Below are positions 385-32,597 of a stretch of 33,339 nt of DNA, piece after piece. Source of the DNA: a virus (taxonomy: Duplodnaviria; Heunggongvirae; Uroviricota; Caudoviricetes). The stretch lies in IMG/VR virus record IMGVR_UViG_2531839180_000001; one strand, given 5' to 3'. A program made the translations under genes and the position numbers. Position 1 is the stretch's first letter. Each line of letters starts with the position of its first letter. The notes beneath the pieces were generated by a model. That model made no database searches. It saw only the letters and a program-made list of their open reading frames with translations, and had not been told where the DNA came from.

Positions 385-663
385 ATGGGTATAAAGATTT
401 GTAAAAATTCCCACCGATACAACCCCCAATACTCACACCTTCCCGATAACCAGGGGCAAACAGGCCGCCACCGCTGCGCAGCATGCGCATACGAGCTTGG
501 TGTACTTCACGCAATGATCGGTATTCCTAAAGCTAAAGATGATTCCTTCCTGGCAAATATTCCATATAGCCAGGCTGGCACAGTCAGACATAAAGACGCT
601 TTTGAGGCATACATGCTTGGGTACGACTATGCAATGAGCAGTGCTCTGCTCAAAGTTGCGTAA
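385..663 (+). CDS. hypothetical small protein (92 aa), prophage accessory gene at cos-proximal end
   Basis: ORF track 385..663; GAGGT about 9 nt upstream of ATG; Cys/His-containing N-terminal half (CKNSHRY...HRCAACAYELG); no family recognised. Confidence 0.4.
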   Translation: MGIKICKNSHRYNPQYSHLPDNQGQTGRHRCAACAYELGVLHAMIGIPKAKDDSFLANIPYSQAGTVRHKDAFEAYMLGYDYAMSSALLKVA

Positions 664-729
664 CGATTTTTGCTTTTTCACCACCTCAACAATGGTTGGC
701 GAGGTGGTTCTTCTGAAAAGGATAATCAA

Positions 730-1017
730 ATGACTGATATCAAAAGAAGCGACTTATTTTATGACGATTACAGTTGGACTGTTTTGCCAGGAGACGATCC
801 CACGAAAACCGCTACAGACCGCACTCGTTTCAGCCGTAAAGAAGGTTACGAGGTGTTAAGCATGCTTAACTCATTAAAAGAATTATCCCATAGAGAAAAA
901 CTCATTGCGGAGTGGATGATTCACGAGCATTTGCCGTCAAACATCCAAGGAAGGGAACAGGTAAAAAAATGGTTAAAGGATAACTTCTCTGAACTTAAGT
1001 CCCGTTACCCGCGATAA
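730..1017 (+). CDS. hypothetical small protein (95 aa)
   Basis: In frame with track ORF 670..1017; ATG at 730 chosen because AAGGA lies 7 nt upstream; no family recognised. Confidence 0.4.
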   Translation: MTDIKRSDLFYDDYSWTVLPGDDPTKTATDRTRFSRKEGYEVLSMLNSLKELSHREKLIAEWMIHEHLPSNIQGREQVKKWLKDNFSELKSRYPR

Positions 1018-25733: not shown

Positions 25734-25757
25734 AAGCCCGCATTTTTTTGCGGGCTT
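25734..25757 (+). terminator. hairpin after the methyltransferase gene, near the prophage edge
   Basis: AAGCCCGCA / TGCGGGCTT 9-bp stem with a T6 loop. Confidence 0.35.
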
Positions 25758-25830: not shown

Positions 25831-25858
25831 TACAAAAAACGCGCCCGAAGGCGCGTTG
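25831..25858 (-). terminator. raiA rho-independent terminator
   Basis: On the minus strand: ACGCGCC-TTCG-GGCGCGT then TTTTTTG, just downstream of the raiA stop. Confidence 0.75.
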
Positions 25859-25880
25859 GCGATACACTCAATATAAAGGA

Positions 25881-26276
<396 letters not shown>

Positions 26277-26455
26277 TCAAAATGTGTGATGGAAATCTCA
26301 TAATTTTGTCACTTTTTGTCAACGAATCTTTTTTGTGAGAAATCGCAGGAAGAGGTGTTTTTTTACTTGAGGAATATCTCAAAGCGAGCCATATTTGATG
26401 AGATCGATAGTGACTAAATCGCTTCAGTTTCACAACTAACAGAATAAAAAAACGG

Positions 26456-26468
26456 CAGCTCAAGGCTG
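26456..26468. repeat. 13-bp target-site duplication, left copy (CAGCTCAAGGCTG)
   Basis: Identical 13-mer flanks both ends of the IS4-derived element. Confidence 0.8.
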
Positions 26469-27277
26469 TAATGCCAGTCAGTTAAGCAACTGACTGGCTC
26501 TTTTTCGGGGCTGTGGGGTATTTCCAGGGCCTCTCCTTTACCACTCTCGGGAAGGCCCTTTCCCTTCTTGTCGGTAATTTCACTGGTTGTCCCATACTTG
26601 CAAGATCGCGCATCAGCTCCGGTATACGTCCCGGTGAAGCGCATGGCGTCCGTCATCGACGTCAGCAGATGGCTGGTCAGTTCCATCTGGCAGACCATTT
26701 TGACCTGCGGGTAGAGCGCCGGGTTCTCGGCATGTGTCTGGCGGGGGAAGGCTGCATCGTTCTCTGGTGTATCCGGTGTGCGCCAGAACACACCATCGAT
26801 GGCCAGCAGGGTCAGGCCGCACCAGTGCGGATGCAGCGTGGCGTTATGCCAGAGCTGCGCTGTTTTCGTGAACACGCGTCGGACAGCCTCACTTCCCAGG
26901 CGCTGGCGGGCCTGAATAACGGCACTGGGGGCAACGAAGGGGCGATTGCCCGGCAGCATGATGTCCAGGCGATTCACAATCTGGTGAAGAGGTTCTTTAC
27001 GCTCAAGCGCCATGCCAACAATACACCAGACCATCATTTCGAGGGGAAGACGGCGCTTGCGTAGCGTTACAGTACCTGATTCGGCAAGGCAACGAGAGAT
27101 GAGTTCGGGGTCGAGGTAATCCCCCAGAGAAGTCAGTGGGTTACGCAGAGAATCGTAACGGGATACCAAATCAAGGGCCTGTCCAATGAGCATAAAAAAA
27201 TCCGGAAACGAGTGAGCGTTTCCGGATTCTTACACAGGCACTGGATCGGTCAACTGATCCTTAACTGATCGGCATTA
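26469..27277 (-). mobile_element. IS4 derivative with internal deletions (about 0.8 kb, non-autonomous)
   Basis: Imperfect terminal inverted repeats beginning TAATGCC at both ends; transposase N-terminal ~180 aa and last ~45 aa colinear with IS4 transposase as I recall it; middle missing. Confidence 0.8.
26482..27193 (-). pseudogene. IS4 transposase remnant (internally deleted, frame disrupted)
   Basis: Track ORF 26414..27193 is IS4-like to about residue 180 then out of frame; authentic C-terminus ...RVVKERPWKYPTAPKKSQSVA readable in another frame, ending at 26482. Confidence 0.75.
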
Positions 27278-27290
27278 CAGCTCAAGGCTG
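27278..27290. repeat. 13-bp target-site duplication, right copy (CAGCTCAAGGCTG)
   Basis: Identical to 26456-26468; with the flanks it reconstitutes the hairpin AAAAACGGCAGC-TCAAGG-CTGCCGTTTT. Confidence 0.8.
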
Positions 27291-27313
27291 CCGTTTTGTG
27301 TTTCAGGTTTCTG

Positions 27314-28051
27314 TTATGTATTGCTGCTGTTTGCGGCGATGATTTTCGCTACTTTTTCAGCTTGCGCATTCATCTGCATCTGACGGTATGCATTTTCCAT
27401 CAGCGGCAGCGCATCACGCGTAGCCTGGGTATCCGGGTAGTCGCGCAACATGCCTTCTACGCGGTTAACGACGGCAACCCATGCGCCACGTTCTGTATAG
27501 TACTCGGCAACGGAGTATTCATATTTCGCCAGACGATCTTTCAGGAATACCAGACGTTTGGTGGCATCGGTGGTGTACTGACTGTTCGGATAGCCGCGCA
27601 CCAGTTTGGAAAAGTCACTAAACGCAGCTCGTGCATGTTGAGGATCGCGATCGCTACGATCGACGCCAAAGAACCCTTGCAGTGCACTGTCATCGAGCGC
27701 CATATTGGTCAGGCCACGCATGTACATGACATAATCGATATTCGGATGGGTCGGGTTAAGGCGAATAAAACGATCGATGGCAGCCTGTGCTAACGGCAAA
27801 TCGGCGTTTTTATAGTAGGCGTAGATGAGATCCAGCTGCACCTGCTGCGAATACGGACCAAACGGATAGCGATTATCTAACGCTTCCAGTTGCGTTATTG
27901 CCTGTCTCCAGTTACCGTCCTGCAGCTTTTGTTGTGCAGTCGCGTAAATTTCATTTGGCGGATTATCAGGTACTTCTTCCTTTGACCCCGAGCAACCCGC
28001 CAAAAACAGGCTTAGTGTGGCGGCTGCCACCAGATATTTCATGCGCGTCAT
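27314..28051 (-). CDS. bamD: outer membrane protein assembly factor BamD (lipoprotein)
   Basis: 245 aa; lipobox LAGC near the N-terminus; conserved divergent arrangement with rluD. Confidence 0.95.
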
Positions 28052-28185
28052 GACGTTTTGACTTTCCTCAAAATGTAATACGGGAGATTCTCTGTTCCTG
28101 CTCCCGGTTAAGACCAGCTACAATAGCACACTATATTAAACGGCAAAGCCGTAAAACCCCAACGATAAACGAAGAAGCAGTATAT

Positions 28186-29166
28186 ATGGCACAACGAGTA
28201 CAGCTCACTGCAACGGTGTCCGAAAACCAACTCGGTCAACGCTTAGATCAGGCTTTGGCCGAAATGTTCCCGGATTATTCACGTTCGCGAATAAAAGAAT
28301 GGATCCTCGACCAGCGCGTGCTGGTTAACGGCAAAGTTTGCGATAAGCCGAAAGAAAAAGTATTGGGTGGCGAGCAGGTGGCCATCAACGCTGAGATTGA
28401 AGAAGAAGCGCGTTTTGAACCGCAGGATATCCCGCTGGATATCGTCTATGAAGATGAAGATATCATCGTCATTAATAAACCACGCGACCTGGTGGTACAT
28501 CCTGGCGCGGGTAACCCGGATGGCACGGTACTGAATGCGTTGCTTCATTATTATCCGCCCATTGCCGATGTACCGCGTGCGGGCATCGTCCATCGTCTGG
28601 ATAAAGACACCACCGGCCTGATGGTTGTGGCAAAAACCGTTCCGGCTCAGACGCGTTTAGTCGAATCTTTGCAACGGCGTGAAATTACTCGTGAGTATGA
28701 AGCGGTGGCAATTGGTCATATGACCGCTGGCGGTACAGTAGATGAACCAATCAGCCGCCACCCGACCAAACGTACTCACATGGCGGTGCATCCGATGGGT
28801 AAACCGGCGGTCACTCACTATCGCATCATGGAACACTTCCGTGTGCACACGCGTCTGCGGTTGCGTCTGGAAACCGGACGTACGCACCAGATCCGCGTGC
28901 ATATGGCCCATATCACTCATCCGCTGGTGGGCGATCCGGTTTATGGCGGCCGTCCGCGTCCGCCAAAAGGTGCTTCGGAAGCGTTTATCTCCACGCTGCG
29001 TAAGTTTGACCGCCAGGCGCTTCATGCAACCATGCTGCGTCTTTATCACCCGATCTCCGGCATCGAAATGGAATGGCATGCGCCTATTCCACAAGATATG
29101 GTGGAGCTGATTGAGGTGATGCGCGCCGATTTCGAAGAGCATAAGGATGAAGTGGACTGGTTATGA
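28186..29166 (+). CDS. rluD: 23S rRNA pseudouridine synthase RluD
   Basis: 326 aa; N-terminal S4-like region and HRLDKDTTG catalytic-aspartate motif. Confidence 0.95.
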   Translation: MAQRVQLTATVSENQLGQRLDQALAEMFPDYSRSRIKEWILDQRVLVNGKVCDKPKEKVLGGEQVAINAEIEEEARFEPQDIPLDIVYEDEDIIVINKPRDLVVHPGAGNPDGTVLNALLHYYPPIADVPRAGIVHRLDKDTTGLMVVAKTVPAQTRLVESLQRREITREYEAVAIGHMTAGGTVDEPISRHPTKRTHMAVHPMGKPAVTHYRIMEHFRVHTRLRLRLETGRTHQIRVHMAHITHPLVGDPVYGGRPRPPKGASEAFISTLRKFDRQALHATMLRLYHPISGIEMEWHAPIPQDMVELIEVMRADFEEHKDEVDWL

Positions 29167-29894
29167 GTAAGCTGATTGTCCCGCAGTGGCCGCTGCCAAA
29201 AGGTGTTGCGGCCTGTAGCTCTACCCGTATCGGCGGCGTGAGCTTGCCGCCGTATGACTCGCTCAACCTCGGTGCCCATTGTGGCGATAACCCGGATCAC
29301 GTCGAGGAAAATCGTAAGCGACTTTTTGCTGCGGGCAATTTGCCTTCAAAACCGGTCTGGCTTGAGCAGGTACACGGCAAAGATGTGCTTAAGCTTACTG
29401 GCGAACCTTATGCCTCAAAACGAGCGGATGCCTCTTATAGCAATACGCCCGGCACGGTTTGCGCCGTGATGACGGCTGACTGCCTCCCTGTGCTGTTTTG
29501 CAATCGAGCGGGAACGGAAGTCGCCGCCGCTCATGCTGGCTGGCGTGGACTGTGCGCAGGCGTGCTGGAAGAGACGGTTTCCTGTTTTGCTGATAATCCC
29601 GAAAACATTCTCGCCTGGTTAGGGCCGGCAATTGGTCCACGCGCGTTTGAAGTGGGAGCGGAGGTTCGCGAGGCGTTTATGGCAGTAGACGCCAAAGCGA
29701 GTGCAGCTTTCATTCAGCATGGAGATAAATATCTGGCGGATATTTATCAGCTTGCCCGGCAGCGTCTGGCGAACGTTGGTGTTGAGCAAATTTTCGGCGG
29801 CGACCGTTGTACATATACGGAAAATGAGACATTCTTCTCTTATCGTCGCGACAAGACCACCGGTCGTATGGCAAGTTTCATTTGGCTGATATAA
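29163..29894 (+). CDS. pgeF: YfiH/PgeF family protein
   Basis: 243 aa; overlaps the rluD stop by 4 nt as in the conserved rluD-yfiH pair. Confidence 0.9.
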   Translation: MSKLIVPQWPLPKGVAACSSTRIGGVSLPPYDSLNLGAHCGDNPDHVEENRKRLFAAGNLPSKPVWLEQVHGKDVLKLTGEPYASKRADASYSNTPGTVCAVMTADCLPVLFCNRAGTEVAAAHAGWRGLCAGVLEETVSCFADNPENILAWLGPAIGPRAFEVGAEVREAFMAVDAKASAAFIQHGDKYLADIYQLARQRLANVGVEQIFGGDRCTYTENETFFSYRRDKTTGRMASFIWLI

Positions 29895-29956
29895 CCTAAA
29901 GAATCAAGACGATCCGGTACGCGTGATTTTCTTTTCACATTAATCTGGTCAATAAC

Positions 29957-29985
29957 CTTGAATAATTGAGGGATGACCTCATTTA
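29957..29985 (+). promoter_or_regulatory. sigma32 heat-shock promoter of clpB
   Basis: CTTGAATA, 13-bp spacer, CCTCATTTA fits the sigma32 consensus CTTGAAA / CCCCATNT. Confidence 0.55.
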
Positions 29986-30023
29986 ATCTCCAGTAGCAAC
30001 TTTGATCCGTTATGGGAGGAGTT

Positions 30024-32597
30024 ATGCGTCTGGATCGTCTTACTAATAAATTCCAGCTTGCTCTTGCCGATGCCCAATCACTTGCACTCGGGCACGACAA
30101 CCAATTCATCGAACCACTTCATTTAATGAGCGCCCTGCTGAATCAGGAAGGGGGTTCGGTTAGTCCTTTATTAACATCCGCCGGCATCAATGCTGGTCAG
30201 TTGCGCACAGATATCAATCAGGCATTAAATCGTTTACCGCAGGTTGAAGGCACTGGTGGCGATGTCCAGCCCTCACAGGATCTGGTGCGCGTTCTTAATC
30301 TTTGCGACAAGCTGGCGCAAAAACGTGGTGATAATTTTATCTCGTCAGAACTGTTCGTTCTGGCGGCACTTGAGTCTCGCGGCACGCTGGCCGACATCCT
30401 GAAAGCAGCAGGGGCGACCACCGCCAACATTACTCAAGCGATTGAACAAATGCGTGGAGGTGAAAGCGTGAACGATCAAGGAGCTGAAGACCAACGTCAG
30501 GCTTTGAAAAAATACACTATCGACCTCACCGAACGAGCCGAACAAGGCAAACTCGATCCGGTGATTGGCCGTGATGAAGAAATTCGCCGTACCATTCAGG
30601 TACTGCAACGTCGTACTAAAAATAACCCGGTGCTGATTGGTGAACCAGGCGTTGGTAAAACAGCCATCGTTGAAGGTCTGGCTCAGCGTATTATCAATGG
30701 CGAAGTGCCGGAAGGGTTGAAAGGCCGCCGCGTACTGGCGCTGGATATGGGCGCGCTGGTGGCTGGGGCGAAATATCGCGGTGAGTTTGAAGAGCGTTTA
30801 AAAGGCGTACTTAACGATCTTGCCAAACAGGAAGGCAACGTCATCCTGTTTATCGACGAATTACATACCATGGTCGGCGCGGGTAAAGCCGATGGCGCAA
30901 TGGATGCCGGCAACATGCTGAAACCGGCGCTGGCGCGTGGTGAATTGCACTGCGTAGGTGCCACGACACTGGACGAATATCGCCAGTACATCGAAAAAGA
31001 TGCTGCGCTGGAACGTCGTTTCCAGAAAGTGTTTGTTGCCGAGCCAACCGTGGAAGACACCATTGCTATTCTGCGTGGCCTGAAAGAACGTTATGAACTG
31101 CACCACCATGTGCAAATTACTGACCCGGCAATTGTTGCAGCGGCGACGTTGTCTCATCGCTACATTGCTGACCGTCAGCTGCCGGATAAAGCCATCGACC
31201 TAATCGATGAAGCAGCATCCAGCATTCGTATGCAGATTGACTCAAAACCAGAGGAACTCGACCGACTCGATCGTCGTATCATCCAGCTCAAACTGGAACA
31301 ACAGGCGCTAATGAAAGAGTCTGATGAAGCCAGTAAAAAACGCCTGGATATGCTCAACGAAGAACTGAGCGACAAAGAACGTCAGTATTCCGAGTTAGAA
31401 GAAGAGTGGAAAGCTGAGAAAGCATCGCTCTCTGGTACGCAGACCATTAAAGCGGAACTGGAGCAGGCGAAAATCGCCATTGAACAGGCTCGCCGTGTTG
31501 GGGATCTGGCGCGGATGTCTGAACTGCAATACGGCAAAATTCCAGAACTGGAAAAGCAACTGGAAGCCGCTACGCAGCTCGAAGGCAAAACTATGCGTCT
31601 CTTGCGTAATAAAGTGACCGACGCCGAAATTGCTGAAGTGCTGGCGCGTTGGACGGGGATTCCGGTTTCTCGCATGATGGAAAGCGAGCGCGAAAAACTG
31701 CTGCGTATGGAGCAAGAACTGCACCATCGCGTTATTGGTCAGAACGAAGCGGTTGATGCGGTATCTAACGCTATTCGTCGTAGCCGTGCGGGGCTTGCGG
31801 ATCCAAATCGCCCGATTGGTTCATTTCTGTTCCTTGGGCCAACTGGTGTGGGTAAAACTGAACTTTGTAAGGCGCTGGCGAACTTTATGTTCGATAGCGA
31901 CGAGGCGATGGTTCGTATCGATATGTCCGAATTTATGGAGAAACACTCGGTGTCTCGTCTGGTTGGTGCGCCTCCGGGATATGTCGGTTATGAAGAAGGT
32001 GGCTACCTGACCGAAGCGGTGCGTCGTCGTCCGTATTCCGTCATCCTGCTGGATGAAGTGGAAAAAGCGCATCCGGATGTCTTCAACATTCTGTTGCAGG
32101 TACTGGATGATGGGCGTCTGACTGACGGGCAGGGGAGAACGGTCGACTTCCGTAATACGGTTGTCATTATGACCTCTAACCTCGGTTCCGATTTGATTCA
32201 GGAACGCTTCGGTGAACTGGATTATGCGCACATGAAAGAGCTGGTACTCGGTGTGGTAAGCCATAACTTCCGTCCGGAATTCATTAACCGTATCGATGAA
32301 GTGGTGGTCTTCCATCCGCTGGGTGAACAGCACATTACGTCGATTGCGCAGATTCAGTTGAAACGTCTGTACAAACGTCTGGAAGAACGTGGTTATGAAA
32401 TCCACATTTCTGACGAGGCGCTGAAACTGCTGAGCGAGAACGGTTACGATCCGGTCTATGGTGCACGTCCTCTGAAACGTGCTATCCAGCAGCAGATCGA
32501 AAACCCGCTGGCACAGCAAATACTGTCTGGTGAATTGGTTCCGGGTAAAGTTATTCGCCTGGAAGTTAATGAAGACAGGATTGTCGCCGTCCAGTAA
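30024..32597 (+). CDS. clpB: chaperone disaggregase ClpB
   Basis: 857 aa from ATG 30024 (GGAGG RBS; track ORF starts 12 nt earlier); two AAA+ modules with GEPGVGKT and GPTGVGKT Walker A motifs. Confidence 0.97.

Follow-up and report, generated by a model that had tools for sequence, protein, structure and literature searches.

The older target consensus for IS4, AAA-N20-TTT, reportedly goes back to Mayaux and to pheS. Hairpins at the ends of insertion sequences (IS) are generally thought to block incoming external transcription. As for the two genes that frame the site described here, bamD is essential and raiA controls ribosome hibernation. Members of the IS4 subgroup produce 10-13-bp repeats and show a “spectacular” conservation of the target arms (PMC2266710). 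raiA forms a single-gene operon (PMC10746276) and is under ppGpp and cAMP-CRP control (PMC8778775). A literature search linking IS4 with raiA or bamD returned only an IS4-flanked inversion that starts at raiA in Shigella sonnei.

Here, we propose that an 809-bp element between bamD and raiA is very probably the outcome of an IS4 insertion followed by decay in place through two repeat-mediated deletions, and that it persists as an inherited fossil with a small effect on transcription. Like the 1426-bp IS4 (InsG), the type element of the IS4 family, the relic has the IS4 terminal repeats, ~98.8% identity and the same type of target; unlike it, the relic lacks 617 bp, has a broken reading frame and has no detectable DDE domain. 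Like MITEs and other non-autonomous IS derivatives, it combines an internal deletion with both terminal repeats and no working transposase, but unlike MITEs it is a single copy at one locus with no sign of amplification. The relic is also already known, having been annotated by RefSeq in other genomes, where the identical element is labelled “IS4 family transposase, frameshifted”. The finding is thus correct but ordinary, and of little importance beyond annotation.

The window, by which we mean the whole 33,339-nt stretch analysed (IMG/VR virus record IMGVR_UViG_2531839180_000001), is Escherichia coli chromosome with a prophage at its left part. Strain 2013C-4282 is 100% identical to the window over positions 25832-31277, and the prophage occupies everything to the left of 25832. 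To the right of bamD lie rluD, yfiH and clpB, on the plus strand. The features of the relic, its flanking genes and its relatives elsewhere are collected in Table 1.

Table 1. Features of the IS4 relic, its surroundings in the window and related relics in other genomes (positions are those of the window unless a record is named).
Feature	Position	Strand	Basis or remark
raiA	25881..26222	-	ORF list and RefSeq annotation of identical sequence
Predicted raiA -10 hexamer, TATGCT	26259..26264	.	~205 nt from the insertion
CRP-like site (one mismatch), ~41 nt upstream of the predicted raiA start	26285..26300	.	~170 nt from the insertion
Residual 259-aa ORF	26414..27193	-	IS4 N-terminal domain and first Asp region, then out-of-frame tail
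raiA-side half of the split bamD terminator	26446..26468	-	U7 tract kept, stem of only 4 bp (fold of 26430-26520)
Left (raiA-side) 13-bp target-site duplication, CAGCTCAAGGCTG	26456..26468	.	Exact repeat of 27278-27290
809-bp internally deleted IS4	26469..27277	- (transposase sense, toward raiA)	Three collinear blocks, IS4 identity ~98.8%
IS4 terminal inverted repeat TAATGCCAGTCAGTTAAG, end downstream of the transposase gene	26469..26486	.	Identical to the full-length IS4 terminus
Junction of the 281-bp frameshifting deletion, GCGCTTC(C/A)CCGG (7 nt exact; 12 nt with one mismatch)	26631..26642	.	Alignment to IS4
Junction of the 336-bp in-frame deletion, 14-nt direct repeat GCCATCTGCTGACG (HLLT codons)	26660..26673	.	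Flanks of both full-length IS4 repeat copies match the relic on opposite sides of the junction
IS4 left-end 15-bp hairpin, then U-run; directly upstream of the transposase ATG	27190..27231	-	RNA fold -21.2 kcal/mol, z = -5.7
Sigma-70-like promoter match for the IS4 transposase gene, TTGACC-16-AAGAAT with TG	27226..27253	-	Consensus scan only
IS4 terminal inverted repeat CTTAACTGATCGGCATTA, end upstream of the transposase gene	27260..27277	.	Identical to the full-length IS4 terminus
Right (bamD-side) 13-bp target-site duplication	27278..27290	.	Exact copy of CAGCTCAAGGCTG
bamD-side half of the split terminator	27278..27297	-	5' arm and loop, no U tract
bamD	27314..28051	-	ORF list and RefSeq annotation of identical sequence
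336-bp-deletion-only relics at bamD-raiA	L014:2147-3235, L015:2147-3235, L017:2147-3235		
1145-bp relics at tdk-adhE	L012:2927-4070, L013:2927-4071		

No other exact direct repeat as long as the two flanking copies of CAGCTCAAGGCTG occurs in the region, and the chance of an exact 13-mer abutting both element termini is ~4^-13. At 13 bp, the duplication falls within the 10-13 bp (about one helical turn) that characterise the IS4 subgroup. The 18-bp terminal repeats are intact but imperfect, being complementary to each other at 16 of 18 positions and starting with TAATGCC. Against a full-length reference IS4 (1426 bp, from tdk-adhE of strain 2015C-3121), the relic aligns to nt 1-174, 444-486 and 809-1426 with 3, 1 and 6 mismatches. 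The block identities of 99.0%, 98.3% and 97.7% all exceed the threshold for calling two elements the same IS in the ISfinder sense (at least 95%). The missing segments are IS4 nt 175-455 and 487-822 (plus-strand numbering, give or take the junction repeats), so that 617 bp are absent through two deletions of 281 and 336 bp. The larger deletion lies at GCCATCTGCTGACG, a perfect 14-nt repeat that encodes HLLT twice in the intact transposase. The element is IS4 itself, present as a defective copy or pseudogene: it is a defective derivative because it has 809 bp and no intact transposase, as against the 1426 bp and intact 442-aa transposase of a full-length IS4.

The reading frame tells the same story. 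It tracks IS4 for 178 aa up to ..MELTSHLLT, where the first HLLT(A) jumps to the second HLLT(S), and the authentic in-frame part before the frameshift amounts to 178 aa + 12 aa. The authentic C-terminus, SPGRIPELM..SQSVA, is back in another frame, and the out-of-frame tail of the residual ORF continues past the IS end, through the repeat and on into the flank. The initial annotation had described an 809-bp element with IS4-type ends and identical 13-bp repeats, an IS4-like frame of about 180 aa that jumps between HLLT repeats and regains its C-terminus in another frame, and a loss of roughly 0.6 kb by at least two deletions. Each of these points is borne out by the coordinates, the terminal match and the alignment to a full-length IS4, which it had proposed as a check and which gave three collinear blocks at ~98.8%.

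What was the target of this insertion? When the element and one repeat are removed, the empty site AAAAAAACGGCAGCTCAAGGCTGCCGTTTT results, and a 78-nt version of it occurs at 100% identity in many genomes, among them Nissle 1917 and the type strain ATCC 11775. Read in the bamD sense, the reconstructed site is predicted to fold, about 20 nt past the bamD stop, into an 11-bp stem with U7 behind it (RNA fold, centroid -17 kcal/mol), and the predicted fold has the GC-rich hairpin and U-run 3' of a gene that define a Rho-independent terminator. The claim that removal of the element restores a terminator hairpin downstream of bamD is thereby upheld, also by the proposed comparison with an uninterrupted bamD-raiA region, the exact empty site being found in many E. 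coli genomes. Many genomes carry an extra G in the terminator loop (GGG as opposed to the GG allele).

The bamD terminator turns out to be a recurrent target. Among 5426 complete E. coli genomes, the bamD-raiA intergenic region is uninterrupted in 5009. A query made of both flanks and the element found IS4 at exactly this site, in the orientation of the window and mostly at full length, in 335 genomes, and a junction query found it in the opposite orientation in 70 (confirmed in SCU-387). Empty sites and both orientations account for 5414 of the 5426 genomes, and IS4 thus sits in the bamD terminator, in either orientation, in 405 genomes or ~7.5% of the set. With the same stem positions cut, insertions into the GG loop allele have duplicated 13 bp and those into the GGG allele 14 bp. 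Because both orientations occur and both loop alleles have been hit, there must have been several independent insertions. Their being tolerated in 405 genomes also argues that an IS4 insertion at bamD-raiA is not costly.

The preference extends to other loci. Among nine distinct IS4 insertion sites sampled, six are terminator palindromes (A-tract, stem, loop, stem, T-tract), cut 2-4 bp inside each arm to give repeats of 12-14 bp, and the site at tdk-adhE has the same outer arms, AAAAAACGG ... CCGTTT, as the one at bamD-raiA. Across the nine sites a larger stem-loop goes with a longer duplication (12, 13 or 14 bp), which suggests that the stagger is not fixed and that the palindrome arms set the positions of IS4 cleavage. 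In the history that we favour, a full-length 1426-bp IS4 would have entered the bamD-raiA intergenic region at its bidirectional Rho-independent terminator, and cuts at the same position in each stem arm would have duplicated the 13-bp inner stem and loop. A preference of IS4 for an A-tract, GC-rich stem-loop and T-tract would explain why this terminator has been hit repeatedly and in both orientations. The bamD terminator as a natural hot spot for IS4, and a duplication length that follows stem-loop size, are both of modest interest to the IS field.

The 809-bp form itself is rare. A probe across both deletion junctions, run with an E-value limit that shut out pieces of full-length IS4, found it in 19 of the 5426 genomes, in one copy each. 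Extending the probe with the raiA flank returned the same 19 genomes, which places all copies at bamD-raiA, and no copy of the 809-bp form was found away from this locus among the 5426 genomes. The multiple dispersed copies, each with its own duplication, that characterise a MITE are therefore not seen. Divergence was compared with the help of “virtually deleted” full-length IS4 sequences and by a local-pair alignment. Between lineages, relic copies show 7-13 differences per 809 nt (~1%), and they show 7-10 from active IS4. Four full-length IS4 from unrelated genomes and loci are 0-3 nt apart over the 809 shared positions, and at most 6 apart over the 1426. It is the ~1% divergence between lineages by which we regard the relic, on its sequence, as an inherited fossil. 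The left repeat is mutated in one relic (L008), and in some relics the bamD-side flank is recombinant and carries the repeat in its 14-bp form. In another (L003, 3725-4450, ~ window 27193-27203), an IS200/IS605 element of ~710 bp lies nested in the A-run that separates the transposase ATG from the left-end hairpin of IS4, and a further seven of the 19 genomes match in the same two pieces. One genome with the relic has 31 IS4 matches. Two genomes match the window exactly in relic and flanks, and neither carries a further IS4. The relic, along with its single-deletion precursor, could be of use as a lineage marker.

How did the two deletions come about? Copies with only the 336-bp deletion were found by probe in 15 genomes, 13 of them near-identical and two diverged. 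Three of the 13 were fetched, including that of EPEC E2348/69, and lie at bamD-raiA in the orientation of the window with the same 13-bp repeat. The one fetched of the two diverged hits lies at another locus: in strain MIN10, a prophage tail region adjoining IS66 holds this diverged IS4 (L016:2145-3235; ~96-97.6% identity) with the same 336-bp deletion, and no recognisable target duplication was found around this copy. A probe of the genomes for copies at bamD-raiA with only the 281-bp deletion returned none. Because copies with a single deletion at this site are all of the 336-bp kind, the simplest history, resting on parsimony, would be an IS4 insertion that lost first the 336-bp and later the 281-bp segment.

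The 1089-bp relic with only the 336-bp deletion (e.g. in EPEC E2348/69) is like the 809-bp relic in its site, orientation, 13-bp repeat and deletion junction, and the two share TG at IS4 positions 116-117. Unlike the 809-bp relic, it retains the 281-bp segment and has a few private SNPs. Its terminal-repeat dinucleotide (AG or GA, positions 8-9) is also swapped between the two ends, with the interior oriented as in the window; inversion of the interior and conversion between the two repeats are both possibilities. As the sampled 336-bp-only copies differ from the 809-bp form in the tips of their terminal repeats and in several SNPs, they are not its direct ancestors.

A second relic, of 1145 bp and with only the 281-bp deletion, sits at the tdk-adhE terminator and accounts for ~1026 places in the 5426 genomes (1041 places in all, minus the 15 copies with only the 336-bp deletion). 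It resembles the 809-bp relic in its identical 281-bp junction and in a terminator palindrome with the same outer arms. It differs in its locus, its 12-bp repeat, its intact 336-bp segment and its own SNPs; both of its tips are of the AGTC type, and its terminal repeats are perfectly complementary. E2348/69 carries both the 1089-bp relic at bamD-raiA and the relic at tdk-adhE. The 281-bp deletion at bamD-raiA could hence be due to recurrent slippage in place or to gene conversion from the tdk-adhE relic, and the SNPs near its junction are uninformative on this choice. The occurrence of the same two repeat-mediated deletions in IS4 fossils at different terminators is a further point of modest interest to the IS field.

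These relatives bear directly on the first alternative, that the 809-bp element is a MITE-like non-autonomous transposon that arrived already deleted and owes its movement to a full-length IS4 acting in trans. Its 18-bp terminal repeats are both intact, the identical 281-bp junction recurs in the 1145-bp tdk-adhE relic at its ~1026 places, and L016 puts a copy with the 336-bp deletion at a second locus, all of which such mobilisation could explain. We nevertheless consider it improbable. All 19 copies are single and at one locus, even in the genome with 31 IS4 matches; the 336-bp-only copies share the site and the repeat, a sign of decay in place; direct repeats bound both deletions, a point in favour of their recurrence; and no SNP unites the bamD-raiA and tdk-adhE relics against full-length IS4, bar one site that may be ancestral. 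Under the reading of an insertion that decayed where it stood, an IS4 resident in one old lineage would have lost 336 bp at the 14-nt repeat, by slippage or illegitimate recombination, and then 281 bp at the 7-12-nt repeat, and with them the YREK motif and two of the three catalytic residues. What was left, the 809-bp relic, would be immobile on its own, inherited with the chromosome and gathering neutral mutations.

What might the relic do to its neighbours? The IS4 left-end hairpin and its U-run lie 47-88 nt inside the left end, and the promoter-like match for the transposase gene overlaps the 5' arm of this hairpin. The terminator scanner missed the hairpin, possibly since an A-U extension uses part of the U-run; it is evident on RNA folding. 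As judged from the folds, this hairpin is probably a substitute terminator for bamD, so that bamD transcripts would now end ~77 nt later, at the IS4 hairpin and U-run, with a 3' UTR longer by that amount. The initial annotation was thus right that the insertion parts bamD from its own terminator, to which a likely replacement supplied by IS4 has to be added. Toward raiA, the 4-bp remnant stem and the original U7 tract come after the IS4 end hairpin. The transposase-distal IS4 end contains an 11-bp hairpin (26473..26498) that resembles a terminator when read on the plus strand.

IS4 inserted 246 nt upstream of the raiA ATG, and the earlier placement of the insertion in the raiA promoter region holds only in a loose sense, as the core promoter is untouched. 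The CRP-like site and TATGCT have class II geometry, and on this putative promoter assignment the raiA core promoter, together with the CRP site, appears intact at ~170-215 bp from the insertion. With an intact core promoter, an effect on raiA would need read-through or a changed upstream context; altered raiA expression through the insertion is possible but a weak prospect. The effect of the relic on transcription is likely small, to judge from the promoter sequences and the predicted folds.

The residual 259-aa ORF retains little of a transposase. In Pfam, only Nterm_IS4 (PF13006) is found (E = 1.8e-33, residues 18-109), and DDE_Tnp_1 (PF01609), which Pfam detects in the full-length protein, is undetected in this ORF. 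The match to NCBIfam transpos_IS4_1 covers only profile positions 3-154 of 332. The deleted DNA held the second Asp, the Glu and the YREK motif, with the segments LMDKGY and HRWEIELGYREIK, so that two of three catalytic residues are gone and the relic lacks the DDE triad and Y(2)R(3)E(6)K signature of an IS4 family transposase. The ORF is open in six of six relic copies examined. Its substitutions among relic copies, counted by hand, are ~6 non-synonymous and 2 synonymous, an excess of non-synonymous changes that neutral decay predicts.

We give little credence to two speculations, that the 259-aa ORF, with its end-binding N-terminal domain of IS4, might be expressed as a trans-dominant IS4 inhibitor and make the site an immunity locus, or that both deletions are programmed, recurring at the internal repeats and remaking the same truncated forms at different terminators. 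Still more doubtful is the broader idea that the relic has been co-opted, either through a 259-aa protein that inhibits IS4 transposition or because the insert is kept for a useful change in bamD or raiA expression. The open ORF in all six relics with its IS4 N-terminal domain kept, the two genomes that match the relic and flanks of the window and have no other IS4, and a persistence long enough for ~1% divergence would fit such a role. They are set against an ORF whose changes are mostly non-synonymous, a nested IS200/IS605 element that separates the promoter region from the ATG in L003 and presumably in the seven similar genomes, one relic-bearing genome with 31 IS4 matches, the presence of the relic in only 19 of 5426 genomes, and the distance of the raiA core promoter (~170-215 bp). 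As for an assembly artefact, a doubt that the initial annotation had attached to the identity of the repeats, or a different complete IS with IS4-like ends, the chance is next to nil and both are refuted: the 13-bp copies are exact, the same structure recurs in 19 independently assembled complete genomes from different laboratories with lineage-specific SNPs, and the 98.8% IS4 alignment is collinear with two clean junctions at direct repeats.

The remainder of the window, positions 1-25831, is a P2-like myovirus prophage with genes for a portal, large terminase, scaffold, capsid, sheath, tape measure, two tail fibres and a baseplate protein; deposited phages cover at most 5% of it at the nucleotide level. 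Its terminal gene encodes a DNA methyltransferase, and in a genome with the same junction hok and com are annotated right before that gene. The prophage sits between raiA and pheL, where it directly follows the raiA terminator within a few bases of the T-run, and two strong terminator hairpins flank the prophage/chromosome junction, one after the methyltransferase gene (25734-25757) and one being the raiA terminator (25838-25857). Among E. coli genomes, 23 share the prophage-raiA junction of the window. In the collection searched, junction and relic are nowhere found together as they stand in the window; two diverged genomes, MFDS1022581 and EC42405, combine a raiA-adjacent methyltransferase gene with the 809-bp relic.
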